From a virus (lineage: Duplodnaviria > Heunggongvirae > Uroviricota > Caudoviricetes), in the IMG/VR virus record IMGVR_UViG_2563366800_000009, positions 1-43,512 of that record: a DNA stretch of 43,512 nucleotides; one strand, written 5' to 3'. This document shows, one piece after another, positions 1-24,366 of the stretch (the first letter of the stretch is position 1; every line of letters begins with the position of its first letter). The notes beneath the pieces are model-generated. The model ran no database searches and had not been told where the DNA came from. It was given only the letters and a program-made list of their open reading frames with translations. Position numbers and translations under genes: made by a program.

Positions 1-933
1 ATGGACAACGACAAAATTGATCAACACAGCGACGAAATTGAAGTTGAGAGCGAAGAAAAAGAGCGCGGCAAAAAAATAGAAATAGATGAAGACCGACTCC
101 CCTCCCGGGCGATGGCAATTCATGAGCATATCCGCCAGGATGGTGAAAAAGAGCTGGAACGCGACGCAATGGCGCTACTGTGGTCAGCCATTGCGGCGGG
201 TCTGTCGATGGGCGCTTCGTTACTGGCAAAAGGGATATTTCATGTCGAACTGGAAGGTGTGCCGGGCAGCTTCTTGCTGGAGAATCTCGGTTATACCTTT
301 GGTTTTATTATCGTCATTATGGCCCGCCAGCAATTATTTACCGAAAATACCGTGACTGCGGTACTACCCGTCATGCAAAAACCGACAATGAGCAACGTCG
401 GCTTACTTATACGGTTATGGGGCGTCGTGCTGCTGGGTAATATTCTCGGGACAGGTATTGCGGCGTGGGCATTTGAATATATGCCTATCTTCAATGAAGA
501 AACTCGCGATGCATTTGTCAAAATCGGCATGGATGTGATGAAGAACACCCCCAGCGAGATGTTTGCCAACGCGATCATTTCCGGCTGGCTGATCGCCACT
601 ATGGTTTGGATGTTTCCTGCAGCGGGTGCGGCAAAGATTGTGGTGATTATATTGATGACCTGGCTTATTGCCCTGGGTGACACCACCCATATCGTGGTCG
701 GTTCTGTTGAAATCCTCTATCTGGTGTTTAACGGTACGCTGCACTGGAGCGATTTCATCTGGCCCTTCGCACTACCTACTTTAGCGGGGAACATCTGCGG
801 CGGCACCTTTATCTTCGCGTTAATGAGTCATGCACAGATTCGTAACGACATGAGCAATAAGCGTAAAGCAGAAGCACGCCAAAAAGCAGAACGTGCGGAA
901 AACATTAAGAAAAATTATAAAAACCCGGCATAA
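1..933 (+). CDS. yfdC: Inner membrane protein YfdC, formate/nitrite transporter family; host gene flanking argW
   Basis: 310-aa ORF with multiple hydrophobic helices; recognised as YfdC; sits immediately upstream of argW as in E. coli K-12. Confidence 0.8.
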   Translation: MDNDKIDQHSDEIEVESEEKERGKKIEIDEDRLPSRAMAIHEHIRQDGEKELERDAMALLWSAIAAGLSMGASLLAKGIFHVELEGVPGSFLLENLGYTFGFIIVIMARQQLFTENTVTAVLPVMQKPTMSNVGLLIRLWGVVLLGNILGTGIAAWAFEYMPIFNEETRDAFVKIGMDVMKNTPSEMFANAIISGWLIATMVWMFPAAGAAKIVVIILMTWLIALGDTTHIVVGSVEILYLVFNGTLHWSDFIWPFALPTLAGNICGGTFIFALMSHAQIRNDMSNKRKAEARQKAERAENIKKNYKNPA

Positions 934-1008
934 ATGGCGAGGGTTTAAGCAATCGAGCGGCAGCGTACTTACCCCGCACTCCATTAGCGGGTATACTCAT
1001 GCCGCATT

Positions 1009-1083
1009 GTCCTCTTAGTTAAATGGATATAACGAGCCCCTCCTAAGGGCTAATTGCAGGTTCGATTCCTGCAGGGGACACCA
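1009..1083 (+). tRNA. argW: tRNA-Arg (anticodon CCU); prophage integration site (attL side)
   Basis: 75-nt cloverleaf read by eye: acceptor GTCCTCT/AGGGGAC, anticodon loop CTCCTAA, T-arm GGTTCGATTCC, discriminator A plus CCA. Confidence 0.9.
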
Positions 1084-1199
1084 TTTATCAGTTCGCTCCC
1101 ATCCGTACCAGTCCGCAAAATCCCCTGAATATCAAGCCTTCCGTATATTCACGGTTCGTCATGGTTCGCGTCAGATCGTTGACAGCCGCACTCCATGAC

Positions 1200-1244
1200 G
1201 GGTAAAAAGTGGATAAAATAATTTTACCCACCGGATTTTTACCC
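1200..1244 (+). promoter_or_regulatory. Repeat cluster directly upstream of intS: GGGTAAAAA (1200-1208) inverted relative to direct copies TTTTACCC (1222-1229) and TTTTTACCC (1236-1244); candidate recombination-protein binding sites or intS control region
   Basis: Repeats seen in sequence; last copy abuts the intS ATG. Confidence 0.4.
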
Positions 1245-2402
1245 ATGCTCACCGTTAAGCAGATTGAAGCAGCAAAGCCGAAAGAAAAACCATACCGCCT
1301 TCTCGATGGTAATGGCCTGTACCTTTATGTTCCTGTATCCGGGAAAAAGGTATGGCAGCTTCGCTACAAGATTGACGGTAAGGAGAAAATCCTGACCGTC
1401 GGAAAATATCCGCTTATGACTTTGCAGGAAGCAAGGGATAAGGCATGGACTGCGAGGAAAGACATCTCGGTTGGCATCGATCCGGTAAAGGCGAAAAAGG
1501 CTTCGTCTAACAACAATTCATTTAGTGCGATTTACAAGGAATGGTACGAGCACAAGAAGCAAGTCTGGTCAGTAGGCTATGCAACTGAACTTGCCAAAAT
1601 GTTTGATGACGACATTTTACCCATCATCGGCGGTCTTGAGATTCAGGATATTGAGCCGATGCAACTGCTGGAAGTAATCCGCAGATTTGAAGATCGCGGT
1701 GCAATGGAACGAGCCAATAAAGCCCGCAGAAGATGCGGCGAGGTTTTCCGTTACGCTATTGTCACCGGCAGGGCTAAATATAACCCGGCACCTGACCTTG
1801 CTGACGCCATGAAAGGATACCGCAAGAAGAACTTCCCGTTTCTTCCTGCCGACCAGATCCCGGCATTCAACAAAGCACTGGCAACATTTTCAGGAAGTAT
1901 CGTATCGCTCATTGCTACCAAAATTTTACGCTACACCGCCCTAAGAACGAAAGAGCTTCGTTCCATGCAATGGAAGAACGTCGATTTTGAAAACAGGATT
2001 ATCACCATCGACGCCAGTGTGATGAAGGGACGCAAAATTCATGTGGTCCCGATGTCAGACCAGGTGGTTGAACTTCTCACTACGCTAAGCTCCATCACTA
2101 AACCAGTATCAGAGTTTGTTTTTGCCGGGCGCAACGATAAGAAGAAGCCGATCTGCGAGAACGCGGTGCTGCTTGTGATCAAACAAATCGGCTATGAAGG
2201 TCTGGAAAGCGGTCACGGATTCAGGCATGAATTCAGCACGATTATGAACGAGCACGAATGGCCTGCTGACGCTATTGAAGTGCAACTGGCACATGCCAAC
2301 GGCGGATCTGTGCGTGGGATTTACAACCATGCTCAGTATCTCGATAAGCGCAGAGAAATGATGCAGTGGTGGGCGGATTATCTCGATGAGAGGGTGGCAT
2401 AG
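1245..2402 (+). CDS. intS: Tyrosine integrase IntS (P4-like family), 385 aa
   Basis: Protein begins MLTVKQIEAAKPKEKPYRLLDGNGLYLYVP, recognised as KplE1 IntS; ORF track extends it upstream to a GTG at 1209 but the ATG at 1245 gives the known 385-aa length; adjacent to tRNA. Confidence 0.9.
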   Translation: MLTVKQIEAAKPKEKPYRLLDGNGLYLYVPVSGKKVWQLRYKIDGKEKILTVGKYPLMTLQEARDKAWTARKDISVGIDPVKAKKASSNNNSFSAIYKEWYEHKKQVWSVGYATELAKMFDDDILPIIGGLEIQDIEPMQLLEVIRRFEDRGAMERANKARRRCGEVFRYAIVTGRAKYNPAPDLADAMKGYRKKNFPFLPADQIPAFNKALATFSGSIVSLIATKILRYTALRTKELRSMQWKNVDFENRIITIDASVMKGRKIHVVPMSDQVVELLTTLSSITKPVSEFVFAGRNDKKKPICENAVLLVIKQIGYEGLESGHGFRHEFSTIMNEHEWPADAIEVQLAHANGGSVRGIYNHAQYLDKRREMMQWWADYLDERVA

Positions 2403-2645
2403 CGCCACCTATAAACCGTGCAATAATCAAACTCACATGCGCATCGTTGATGATGTATGTGATCACCACAAATATCACATCTGGACTAGTTCCGTCTTCA
2501 TGCGTAGGTATCTGTTCACGCCTCCATTTCTGCAAATCCTAAAGATGAGGTTTTGGGATATCTTTTTATCCTCAGTTCTCTATCCATTCTACAAAGCAGT
2601 AATGAACCATCACAGTGTGATAGTGAGACATCCGCTACGTTAATT

Positions 2646-2671
2646 GCAGAGAAATGATGCAATGGTGGGCG
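2646..2671 (+). repeat. Degenerate duplicate of the intS 3' end (compare 2350-2375); integrase C-terminus remnant
   Basis: 26 bp with one mismatch to 2350-2375; would encode REMMQWWA as at the IntS C-terminus. Confidence 0.6.
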
Positions 2672-2742
2672 AACTGGTTACCATGCAAAACATCATGTCT
2701 TATAACGTAAATAATTATAGCTTCATTATATAAAGCCATTAT

Positions 2743-4695
2743 CTAACGAAGCCATTGGCTTGGTTTTTGTTTCAGTATATGTATCGCCCCTTGACCGGAA
2801 GCTGCCTGTTGTGCAGTTGCTAGCGTCACTATGTAGGTATTCCCTACTGTTCTTGGTTGAGTAAGGTTAAACTGCAGCGGTGAAGTATCACAGGATATGT
2901 ATTCTATTCCTGAATCAGAAGTCACCTGAAATTCAGTATATAATACACTACCGGAAGAGATAGAAATGTGAATTGCTATCTCACCTCCAGTGTATACAAA
3001 AGGTATACTTGGCATATTTGAAAAATCCTTAAAGTTAAGCATTGACGATGAACTAATAACCTCTTTGCCTACGTCATTAGTAAGTTGAACCGGTTTAGTG
3101 TAATCATAAGCCAGTAGAACGTAATAGTTTACAAAATTTACAAAACTTGAAGACGCCTTTGAAGAGCTATGCCATGTTTTTTTATTGTCCACACGGTATA
3201 TGGATTGGATGTTTAGAAACTCACTTGCCGTTGCTCTTTGCAGTATACCAGTACCTATGCCAAAATGGATATTACCAACGTCAAACACGTGGTCCTCGAC
3301 ATTTCCTGTAGTTGATAATATCGCGATATCAGGCTCTGCACTATCTTCAAGCGCTTCACTGCATTTTTCAAAGTACATAGAACCAACAGACCAACTAACA
3401 GCGTTAACAGTAGCTAAACCAGCGCCTGCTGTGGTTTCAGCTATTAATGTTCCTATTCTTGATGCCAATCCTTGCCCGAGAGTGACACCGGCACCTATGA
3501 GCTGTGGGGTTAAAGATGATGAATACGGATCATACCCATAGGACAAAGATTTTGATGTGTTATACGCAGCGACGACACCAAATTCAACACCATTAACGTT
3601 TACGTCTCCGGTTTCACCGGAGAAACCATGTGCCAAAGAGACACCTCTTGCACAATCAATTCCCATATATTGATTTACTTTATGATACCAACTCCCAAGA
3701 AGTACAATTCCAACTTCTGTGGCATTATAAGCATATATAATGTCTGTGACAGATTCTGCAACTACACCAAAACCATAAAAACCGTAAGGCGCAACATTGT
3801 TAGCATCAATATTTAATGTACCAATGTGCCTAATTCCACGAACTTGTTGTTCAGGCAATGAAAGATCCGGGGATGTTCCTACTGGTTTTTTGCTGGCGCG
3901 AACTACAGCCTTTCCACCCCATGAATAGCCACTCATCGCTTTAATAGTTGCGCCGTTTGTTTCCATCACTAAATACGATGGGATAACAACTTCATCGCTA
4001 ACAAAATATGTACAACCAGGCGTTAACTCAATAAACCCTGTTTTAATTGCCATGTTAATTGCATTTAAACAATCACTTTCAGAATAAGGTTTGGCGCCGA
4101 AGTTCTCTGGGGTGTTTAAGTTAAACCCATTAAGTAGTCCAACGCATATCCAATTATCATCTGGATGGCTTCCAGCATCAACATCATAACCGCCTTCTAC
4201 TATATCTTTCCTGGCATAAAAATACATGTTTCCATCAGGATCGTTATCATAAAGAACAGCATAGCGCTCATCATCAATATGTCCACCTGATGAAAAACTA
4301 ATATCAGACTTAAAATAGAAGTTAAGTCTGAAATGATTTTTTGCCCATACAGAAAATTGATCAGGATCATACTTCAGCACATTCGGAAAATAGAACTGCT
4401 GCGCCCCATACGCATCATAAACAGCCATAGAATGGCCCTGTACAGTAACGAATTTGGCAATCTGTCCGTTATATACCGGATATCCAGCAGCGTTAATGAT
4501 GATTGGCTGCGAAACAGGAACGTGAGAGCCGTCTTCGTTCTCCACATAAACCTGAATCTGGTTTTCAGGATTTACCGGGTCAGTGTCAATTTTACCGATA
4601 TAAATTTTGCCATTGGCAACCGCTTTAAAAGAACGCGCCATAGTGAAGAGTTGCGAAGGCATTGATACGATCACATTGGCTGTAATGTCTGTCAT
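2743..4695 (-). CDS. Tailspike protein; P22-type N-terminal head-binding domain with divergent receptor-binding/enzymatic domain
   Basis: N-terminus [34 protein letters not shown]...[13 protein letters not shown] matches the conserved P22/Sf6/HK620 tailspike head-binding domain; the rest is distinct. Confidence 0.85.
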
Positions 4696-4751
4696 TTAAT
4701 TTGCTCCAGATACAAGGAATCACCGAAGCATGGCTACGATGAATTTTGGGC

Positions 4752-4777
4752 ATAAAAAAACCCAGCCGAAGCTGGGT
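4752..4777 (-). terminator. Rho-independent terminator between ant and tailspike gene
   Basis: Hairpin CCCAGC-TTCG-GCTGGG followed by a T-run on the minus strand. Confidence 0.55.
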
Positions 4778-4795
4778 TGTCGCGTTGGTTATCTG

Positions 4796-5674
4796 TCAGT
4801 AGTTATGTACTGAAGGAGGTAATTCTTTATTCTTAAGTCTCATCCATGCGGAAAGATTCGCTGGTCCGTCTGGCTCATTGATATCAACATCTCGTGTGTG
4901 ATTGATTAAAACGTCTCTCGCCATTCCGATAACATACGAGAATTCATGACCGTAGTCGTAGCATCTGCCGGAATAGTTCGATTGAACTTGTTTTAATGCC
5001 GGATACAGTTCGCGGAATAATGCCTGTGAACGGTTAGCATAATCCCATAGCCATACAAGGCTGTTTGCTTCTTTTGCAGAAAGCTCGTTTGCTTTCTTCT
5101 CTTGTTTGCCGATAAACTCGCCTTCAAGCACTACCCTGTGGATGTACTCTACGGCCAGCGGGATTTGTTCAATTGAAAGTTCATCAATGCTGTCAATACC
5201 AAAACGCTGATGAACCATATTGTATGCATCGTCATAGCGAAGTCCTTTCTTTCCTACCAGCATGTTTACTGCATCGCGTAGCGGCGTTCTTTCCTCAACA
5301 GTGGTTTTCTTGCCTTTCACATACTCGCCATGTTTGCGAATTGAAGGTAGAACTTCTGCTGTTACCCACTTGCGGAATTTGTGCGGGACCGAACCTTTAT
5401 TGACAGCATCGCGGCAGCGCAGAACCAATGTATACATACCTGATTCGCTAACAATGCTTAGATTCTGCTCACCACCAAGGGTGTAACTTAAAGTTACTCC
5501 CTTTTCATCGTCATCAAGTGCAGTAAGCGCCTTGCGTGAGTTAGTCAGGGTTAAAGCATCACAAACATCTTTTGCTACAAACCACGGCTCACCGCATTTG
5601 TTGATGACGCGGATTTCACTGTCGCCGAATTTGAAGATGGTGAAATCGTTTTGTGCCTTTGCTATACTTTTCAT
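4796..5674 (-). CDS. ant: Antirepressor Ant (BRO-N plus antirepressor C-terminal domain)
   Basis: Position downstream of arc as in P22 immI; ATG at 5674 has an AGGAAA RBS; ORF-track start at 5740 is a TTG. Confidence 0.7.
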
Positions 5675-24210: not shown

Positions 24211-24286
24211 TGGTGCTGGTTAACGGACTTGAACCGCTACCCATTCGCTTACAAGGCGACTGCTCTACCATTGGAGCTAAACCAGC
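24211..24286 (-). tRNA. Phage-encoded tRNA-Thr-like gene (anticodon UGU)
   Basis: Cloverleaf read by eye: acceptor GCTGGTT/AACCAGC, D-arm GCTC-CAATGGTA-GAGC, anticodon loop CTTGTAA, T-loop TTCAAGT, discriminator A, CCA; one anticodon-stem mismatch. Confidence 0.6.
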
Positions 24287-24291
24287 ATGTT

Positions 24292-24366
24292 TGGCGGGAC
24301 AGCGTGGACTCGAACCACGATAAGAAGGTTAACAGCCTTCCGTAATGACCTTTATACGACTGACCC
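24292..24366 (-). tRNA. Phage-encoded tRNA-Asn-like gene (anticodon GUU), possibly degenerate
   Basis: Anticodon arm GAAGG-CTGTTAA-CCTTC, T-arm CGTGG-TTCGAGT-CCACG, 3' GCCA; acceptor stem has a T-T mismatch and the D-stem is only 3 bp. Confidence 0.4.

Follow-up and report, generated by a model that had tools for sequence, protein, structure and literature searches.

The 340-nucleotide (nt) spacer that separates the integrase gene intS from the tailspike gene (positions 2403-2742) in a P22-like prophage at argW is most probably a recombination fossil built up in three layers, and no present function could be detected in it. We studied it in positions 1-43,512 of the IMG/VR record IMGVR_UViG_2563366800_000009; this whole stretch of 43,512 nt is called the window, and all coordinates are those of the window unless another locus is named. 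A first-pass annotation of the region had described the spacer as about 340 bp of non-coding DNA containing a remnant of the integrase 3' end. The 340 nt indeed hold no intact gene, but about 70% of them consist of a minus-strand pseudogene of humD, a gene of the UmuD'-like S24 peptidase family. This pseudogene is followed by a second copy of an integrase terminus and by the flank of an exchanged tailspike cassette. The recombination joints lie at 2377, at about 2427-2440, at 2638-2645 and at 2677, and each is marked by an abrupt loss of similarity that is reproducible across genomes.

The first-pass annotation had reported a 26-bp near-copy of the last intS codons about 270 bp downstream of the gene, and this repeat is real. 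The sequence GCAGAGAAATGATGCAGTGGTGGGCG at 2350-2375, which encodes the residues REMMQWWA of IntS, has a second copy at 2646-2671 that differs by a single mismatch. When up to 3 mismatches were allowed, no second match to the 26-mer appeared in 100 dinucleotide-preserving shuffles. A repeat search lengthened the match to 34 nt (2342-2375 and 2638-2671, 88% identity), with starts 296 nt apart. Copy 1 (2342-2377, plus strand, codons DKRREMMQWWA) lies inside intS with its 26-nt core at 2350-2375, and copy 2 occupies the stretch from 244 nt to about 270 nt past the int stop. Direct repeats of 26-34 nt that bracket a segment of about 270 nt could in principle reflect chance, a target-site duplication or an att-like repeat around a small mobile insertion in the int 3' end. 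We give this explanation almost no credence. The shuffles exclude chance, and the DNA between the copies is an ordinary gene fragment whose intact homologue occupies the equivalent place in other phages. The repeat search found no terminal inverted repeats, and in Escherichia coli ZY22049 the int allele of copy 2 extends colinearly over 57 nt and on into its flank, as expected of a gene fragment and not of a duplicated target. A small mobile element or att-type duplication was rejected also because the flanked unit always occurs in the same two contexts and never at unrelated sites. Note that deletion of the 296 nt between the 26-nt repeats, if it occurred, would give an Int ending in ...REMMQWWANWLPCKTSCLIT followed by the stop.

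Copy 2 (2638-2677, plus strand, 26-nt core at 2646-2671) is a 3' fragment of an HK620-type intS covering codons ~366-378. It is fused on its left side to humD codon ~46 and cut at GACTGG on its right. Its identity is established by relatives in which it is longer. In ZY22049 (at argW), mEp234, Sf101 and the Shiga toxin (Stx) phage 1717 it reads AAGCGCAGAGAAATGATGCAGTGGTGGGCGGACTGG(C/A)TTGATGAAAAGGT(A/G)GAGTGA and translates as KRREMMQWWADW(L/I)DEKVE before the stop, the L form being the exact C-terminus of the HK620 and K-12 IntS proteins. In these relatives the remnant runs on into about 80 nt of HK620's own downstream flank, and the HK620 int 3' end with this flank matches the remnant and flank of the sbcB phages at 86.5-89.7% over 133-141 nt. 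This alignment takes in the annotated excision-transcript terminator; the flank (...CTTGCAATCCAGTGCAAAGCTTTG...) is kept in ZY22049, mEp234, Sf101 and Stx1717 and deleted in the window and in E. coli T43. Because the relatives continue in frame to the HK620/K-12 terminus and then into the HK620 flank, copy 2 is a genuine piece of an integrase gene accompanied by DNA native to its downstream side, which bears out the earlier assignment of the remnant to the intS 3' end. It codes for only about 12 integrase codons and holds no catalytic domain. We considered the approximately 220 nt located 5' of copy 2 as a decayed int catalytic region and rejected this candidate, since tblastn with Int matched only REMMQWWANWL; the DNA 5' of 2638 is antisense to humD and shows no int homology. 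We call unit X the combination of the humD pseudogene, the 57-nt int 3' end and the native terminator flank of that integrase.

The joint between the two genes in unit X is the same in all copies compared. The humD side reads ...CATCCAC(G/T)A, then C... beyond the joint, and the int side reads ...TATCTCGA before and TAAGCGCAG... beyond it, while unit X of Stx1717 passes from ...GCCACGA directly into TAAGCGCAG. Read by eye from the alignment, the joint contains a 3-nt CGA microhomology, which would be typical of illegitimate recombination; the fusion reading takes GCAGAGAAATGATGCA... as putatively foreign to the 5' part of intact humD. The humD::int junction is identical in the window, T43, ZY22049, mEp234, Sf101 and Stx1717, and since it is the same in every copy it arose once.

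The pseudogene itself (2409-2647, minus strand) corresponds to residues ~46-129 of the 129 residues of HumD, known from phage P1 and from a family of UmuD'-like translesion-synthesis subunits (NCBIfam NF051876; Pfam Peptidase_S24). Intact homologues stand at the equivalent position in other genomes. The HumD proteins of E. coli ECL27829 and of PSS-10 (128-129 amino acids [aa]) score 207-215 bits against the NCBIfam HumD equivalog and also match Peptidase_S24. In ECL27829 the order is argW, intS, 6 nt and humD with the two genes convergent; in PSS-10 it is dacD, att and humD, followed by the divergent gtrA-gtrB-gtrC. IntS adjoins 11 of the 80 intact humD loci in IMG/VR. Unlike these members, the copy in the window has lost its start codon with the rest of the first 45 codons and carries an in-frame TAG and at least two frameshifts, one near codon 78 and one caused by a 4-nt deletion near the C-terminus. 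When intact HumD was used as tblastn query against the window (70-79% identity for PSS-10 HumD), residues 46-78 matched at 2549-2647 and residues 79-117 at 2440-2556 in a different frame, with TAG in place of Glu84. A repaired 68-aa translation matched positions 49-118 of the 129 positions of NF051876 (E 2.6e-19) and scored 69.5 bits, below the curated cut-off of 120 bits, and it falls short of the full-length open reading frame (ORF) of about 129 aa that the family expects. The Prokaryotic Genome Annotation Pipeline labels the homologous minus-strand stretch of several genomes in the same way, as a HumD family translesion DNA polymerase that is frameshifted, has an internal stop and is missing its N-terminus. 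Truncation, frame changes and the TAG together make 2409-2647 a dead gene, unable to produce HumD protein. The former humD stop remains recognizable at 2409-2411; window positions 2403-2476 are homologous at DNA level to the intact int/humD junction of ECL27829, and the 4-nt deletion is lineage-specific, being common to the window, T43 and F1267.

Two other loci bear on the decay of humD. The 239-nt int-tailspike spacer of phage Dewey (locus L006, 3654-3892) holds an apparent remnant of an ECL27829-type humD (79% over 295 nt that comprise the int end and the humD 3' part); if this remnant is real, humD would appear to have decayed independently in several P22-like lineages. In E. coli F070 (locus L011, ~3380-3500), a second humD fragment with ~75% identity to window 2438-2551 lies about 120 nt past unit X and is followed by an IS3 element.

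The terminus of the window's own intS marks another joint. The last 25 nt of the gene (2378-2402, plus strand) encode the allele that ends in ADYLDERVA and stop. They differ from Sf6, K-12 and HK620 at 8-11 positions, whereas the rest of the gene shows 0-7 mismatches per 100 nt. These 25 nt are identical among the window, T43, ZY22049 and F1267, and megablast matches in many genomes end at about 2377. The breakpoint at ~2377 together with the divergent last 25 nt indicates that an int core was joined to a humD-linked downstream module at the distal edge of copy 1, and the repeat ends where it does because this joint sits there. Judged by these comparisons, 2378-2402 belongs to the downstream humD-linked module and not to the int core.

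The right edge of the spacer was set by an exchange of the tailspike. Window and ZY22049 are homologous at 2300-2677 (93.8%) and at 4348-4710 (91.5%) and share nothing across 2678-4347, where ZY22049 has an unrelated cassette. Homology resumes exactly at 4348, the boundary of the conserved P22-type head-binding part of the tailspike (4348-4695, minus strand); the receptor-binding part (2743-4347, minus strand) has been exchanged. A non-P22-like prophage of E. coli CE0021a carries a gene for an 815-aa tail protein whose 3' flank shows 100% identity with the 68-nt flank at 2675-2742, and window 2675-4011 matches that gene and its flank at 82% overall (locus L014, 3501-4837). The two blocks of ZY22049 homology and the CE0021a match lead us to conclude that a receptor-binding cassette with its 65-nt 3' flank (2678-2742) replaced an earlier one, and that this replacement cut the int remnant after GACTGG and removed the terminator flank. 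The junction of the int fragment and the cassette flank contains a TGG microhomology at 2674-2676. There the window reads ...GCGAACTGGTTACCATGC, CE0021a reads ...CAATATTGGTTACCATGC, and the int remnant elsewhere reads ...GACTGGCTTGATG; split at the joint, ...GCGAACTGG in the window and ...CAATATTGG in CE0021a both lead into TTACCATGC.

We followed the junction through 5,426 complete E. coli RefSeq genomes, a set that the window's own genome lies outside of. The spacer matched 566 of them (~10%). The nearest int-tailspike region was that of T43 (~92-93% identity; 92.9% at the junction). A contiguous match from the int stop, with intS, humD pseudogene and remnant, occurred in T43 and ZY22049 only, and F1267 carries intS and the first 150 nt of the pseudogene before a different breakpoint. 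BLAST of the spacer found window 2426-2677 at 86-91% identity in mEp234, Sf101 and the Stx phages 1717 and 2851, which thus share the humD pseudogene and the int remnant. Unlike the window, these phages have no full intS, their remnant is complete with its terminator flank, and an unrelated integrase lies across attP. Relatives of this type integrate at sbcB/dacD, and in every one inspected about 105 nt separate the segment from the 13-bp attP core, on the side opposite the integrase. A degenerate 30-nt pattern of the joint matched 33 IMG/VR contigs; all 31 loci with enough left flank showed the sbcB-type att flank, and none had IntS upstream. The same pattern found no match in a scan of one genome per species, so nothing indicates that the junction exists beyond the phage pool of E. 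coli and Shigella.

The humD::int joint itself is invariant; what varies is the remnant's distal end and the cargo behind it. The remnant of the relatives is usually complete to the stop codon and keeps the HK620 downstream terminator. Full termini read EKVE, EKVV (as in ECC-1470 IntS), EKVA (as in ECL27829, Dewey and IME10), EKTQ and EKV, each followed by the stop, so that at least five natural int terminus alleles stand beside three truncated forms. Such a pattern would be expected if homologous crossovers had taken place repeatedly in the ~35 conserved nt of the remnant. The cargo is gtrA-gtrB in six IMG/VR loci, where gtrA starts 206-233 nt after the remnant start and ~150 nt after its stop, a spacing equal to the 152-nt gap between intS and yfdG in K-12. 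It is oacB in Sf101, nleG7 in Stx phages (Stx phage 1717), a tail fibre gene in mEp234, and directly a P22-type tailspike in many IMG/VR loci, ZY22049, T43 and the window. In one further locus (L027, IMG/VR 2609459861_000003), the remnant ends in ...DEKTQ and stop and is followed ~50-500 nt downstream by a convergent, apparently intact and distant HumD-like gene (32% identity to PSS-10 HumD), which recreates the int/humD arrangement behind the older humD pseudogene.

These patterns allow a stepwise history to be drawn up, whose second layer is the inferred one. In the first layer, humD codon ~46 (minus strand) was joined illegitimately to codon ~366 (plus strand) of an IntS-type int, giving unit X. 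In the second layer, the starting point would be a P22-like IntS phage with the order attP, intS, terminator, gtr or oac, and tailspike, as in HK620, Sf6 and the K-12 prophage CPS-53. In this phage the int2851-attP-humD module from a phage that integrates at sbcB probably took the place of attP-intS, a swap that would itself have generated unit X and led to Sf101-like phages. Later an intS-convergent-humD module like that of ECL27829 may have re-entered by a crossover at the humD 3' end, near 2427-2440. Re-entry would have put a complete intS upstream of unit X and created the direct repeat, a state that appears preserved in ZY22049. In the third layer, the cassette at 2678-4347 replaced its predecessor with one end joined inside the int remnant at TGG, removing the rest of the remnant, the terminator and anything between those and the tailspike; T43 and the window represent this state.

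The order of the first two layers has a serious competitor. Unit X may have been born inside an IntS phage by an unequal illegitimate crossover between humD codon ~46 and intS codon ~366 and been exported later. Two IntS phages resident together, or tandem elements at argW, one with intS and convergent humD and the other with intS, terminator and gtr, would directly yield intS, humD pseudogene and int', and homologous crossover within humD would then have carried unit X into sbcB-type phages. In favour of this order, the remnant derives from IntS, the arrangement of intS with convergent humD is common (ECL27829 and 11 IMG/VR loci), and the PSS-10-like humD alleles, the closest intact relatives of unit X, are also linked to IntS; moreover, both histories cost an equal number of steps. 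We nevertheless regard birth in an IntS phage as rather unlikely, given how unit X is distributed. IntS-linked copies are rare (two full and a few partial ones among the 566 E. coli genomes, and 0 of the 31 IMG/VR loci). A neighbour-joining tree was built from the ~210 nt of the humD body, with intact alleles as the root. All 200 bootstraps recover unit X as monophyletic, and 188 of 200 place its three IntS-linked copies inside the diversity of the sbcB-linked ones. The IntS-type flank of the window also changes to the X type at 2427-2440, beside the lineage-specific 4-nt deletion, which looks like a secondary crossover. The nesting and the database abundance favour the history in which the swap to the sbcB module came first, and we hold it to be probable.

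Several points weigh against this history and the fossil interpretation as a whole. The order of the first two layers hangs on a neighbour-joining tree of ~210 nt and on database abundance, both of which recombination and sampling (e.g., of clonal O157) may distort. The intact humD alleles closest to unit X (75-79% at nucleotide level) occur in both IntS and sbcB contexts, so that allele similarity is indecisive. We had considered the similarity of the humD body as a pointer to the birthplace and set it aside: sbcB-linked PSS-10 is closer to unit X than IntS-linked ECL27829, but PSS-10-like alleles are IntS-linked in IMG/VR as well. No intact humD more than 80% identical to unit X was found as a candidate donor. 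The case against a present function consists solely of negative computational results, and conversion genes may still lie at the far end of the prophage, as the window stops short of attR.

The first-pass annotation had placed the spacer in a slot that carries O-antigen conversion genes in Sf6 and P22 and had seen in the remnant a scar of module exchange at the integrase terminus. The slot is as described in Sf6, where oac lies between int and tailspike, and likewise in HK620, which has an O-antigen modification gene there, and in K-12 CPS-53, where gtrA follows intS. It is not so in P22, where gtrCBA lies between the tailspike and attP, with int across attP, so that the two stand at opposite ends of the P22 prophage; P22 lacks topological equivalence with this prophage and can be compared with it only loosely. 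The absence of conversion genes from the region is upheld by tblastn with five proteins (Oac of Sf6, OacB of Sf101, GtrA, GtrB and the O-antigen modification protein of HK620), none of which matched anywhere in the 43.5-kb window. The scar is likewise real in that int allele homology breaks at the integrase terminus; however, it was inherited as a unit. It was not formed in this prophage, because hundreds of genomes share this junction, which nearly always lies in an sbcB/dacD phage with an unrelated integrase. Comparison of the int-tailspike junction across relatives, which the earlier annotation had suggested, locates the remnant as a breakpoint and finds the identical junction with gtrA-gtrB or oacB ~150 nt behind it. 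An in-situ deletion, in this prophage, of an oac or gtr cassette formerly situated between the two copies of the int end, as the first-pass annotation implied, would account for a short spacer in a slot that elsewhere holds oac, an O-antigen modification gene or gtrA, and the third layer did remove whatever lay distal to the remnant. It is nonetheless very unlikely. The two copies enclose a humD pseudogene that is colinear with intact intS/humD junctions, and the conversion genes of relatives stand downstream of copy 2 and not between the copies. The same junction also occurs in phages without any IntS, and in ZY22049 the full remnant and terminator are followed directly by the tailspike with no conversion gene.

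Selection for a present function of unit X, such as a small protein like ORF17 of Sf101, a regulatory RNA, or a cis-acting terminator or promoter for int or for morons, also seems improbable, although a trifle less so than the deletion just described. Unit X is widespread (566 of 5,426 genomes), many phages have it immediately upstream of gtrA, oacB or nleG7, its HK620 terminator flank is retained in relatives, and an ORF has been annotated within it. Against this, copies of unit X differ by indels of 1, 3, 4 and 8 nt that break every long ORF on both strands, and their divergence of 5-12% exceeds the ~3-4% of the window int core against other int alleles. No ORF of at least 90 aa lies within 2403-2742, and the ORFs of the spacer (85 aa on the plus strand, 48 and 87 aa on the minus strand) match no Pfam family. 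An Rfam 15 scan of 900-5000 passed only the tRNA-Arg, the best spacer match being an archaeal snoRNA model at 19.7 bits against a threshold of 45 bits. No sigma-70-like promoter was found in 2250-2900 and no terminator within 2403-2742, and the folding energy of 2403-2742 is unremarkable on either strand (z-scores of -0.66 and -1.18). The terminator part of unit X is, moreover, the part that the window has lost. Deletion of this HK620-type terminator may let int transcripts run on, in antisense, into the 3' end of the tailspike gene; the only terminator-like hairpins are situated within that convergent gene, the nearest one 3' of intS (AAGCCATTGGCTT and then a T-run, 2749-2761, plus strand) being in its final codons.

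The paper on Sf101 (PMC4159516) treated ORF17 as a novel gene with no homologues in phages. This ORF (locus L002, 2941-3189, plus strand) is antisense to the humD pseudogene, and its window counterpart (2386-2643, plus strand) shares only the central 45 residues. ORF17 and the 85-aa plus-strand ORF of the window thus resemble each other in their middle part, only where the DNA does, and match no Pfam family. ORF17 and similar hypothetical ORFs are probably spurious and not genes, a small correction to the annotation of ORFs antisense to the humD pseudogene.

With humD dead and an int fragment of 35-40 nt that is not expressed, the role left to the region is that of homology patches for exchange with sbcB-type and IntS-type phages. 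We suggest, tentatively and as something less than an even prospect, that the int-end fragment (35-57 nt) and the humD pseudogene act as a working 'universal joint', patches that mediate repeated crossovers of the RecA or Red type. The suggestion comes in part from the finding that at least five int terminus alleles and three truncated forms, with different cargo, stand behind one humD::int junction. If true, P22-like and lambdoid phages would swap argW/IntS and sbcB/Int2851 modules on one side of the joint, while their cargo of conversion, effector or tailspike genes would be exchanged at the other side.

The region has clear parallels in known systems. As at the mosaic boundaries of lambdoid and P22-like phages, including HK620 and the 'boundary sequences' that the Sf6 record (NC_005344) annotates in its int-proximal region (bsq2, bsq3), similarity changes abruptly at gene ends and short conserved patches are common to otherwise different modules. 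Novel joints there likewise arise by illegitimate recombination with a few nt of microhomology and are spread by homologous recombination in the flanks. The window differs in that its patch is a recognizable integrase gene fragment fused to a pseudogene, in that this patch links two unrelated integration modules (IntS/argW and Int2851/sbcB), and in that a second swap set it beside a full copy of its own gene and so produced a direct repeat. No description of the humD::int junction was found in the searchable literature. With the IntS module of KplE1 (CPS-53), HK620 and Sf6, the window shares the attB site argW, a 385-aa integrase at ~96% nucleotide identity and the moron slot after int; unlike that module, its int has the last 25 nt of another allele, the HK620-type terminator is absent and the slot holds no conversion gene.

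The window region is ordinary phage mosaicism, instructive and unusually legible, and it leaves the current understanding of mosaicism unchanged. It offers a stepwise history at nucleotide level of how an integrase was gained, an accessory gene lost and a receptor-binding tailspike changed, with living intermediates for the steps that are Sf101-like, ZY22049-like and T43-like. The moron slot between int and tailspike of argW P22-like prophages can be empty, while relatives with the same scar carry genes for O-antigen glucosylation or acetylation or for a type III effector. The shared relic also links the argW (IntS) module with the sbcB module of the type found in Stx2c-phage 2851, which bears on prophage typing and on recombination in Shiga toxin-producing E. 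coli and Shigella.

The genes that surround the spacer follow the layout of known argW prophages. The window opens with yfdC (1-933), followed by argW, a tRNA-Arg(CCT) gene at 1009-1083 on the plus strand (ARAGORN; Rfam tRNA model, 63 bits) that is the integration target and the left boundary of the prophage; the order yfdC-argW-intS is annotated likewise in T43, ZY22049 and K-12. The intS gene (1245-2402, plus strand) is an intact ORF for a 385-aa prophage integrase (NCBIfam integrase domain, E 1e-70), equal in length to the annotated intS of T43, K-12, Sf6 and HK620 and aligned to them without gaps. The tailspike gene (2743-4695, minus strand) encodes 650 aa, with the Pfam Head_binding domain at residues 1-113 (E 5.6e-67). 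The second copy of the argW 3' end (attR) was not found within the window, and the right end of the prophage lies beyond 43,512. Inside the prophage, the minus strand carries genes for tRNA-Thr(TGT) and tRNA-Asn(GTT) at 24211-24286 and 24292-24366, respectively.

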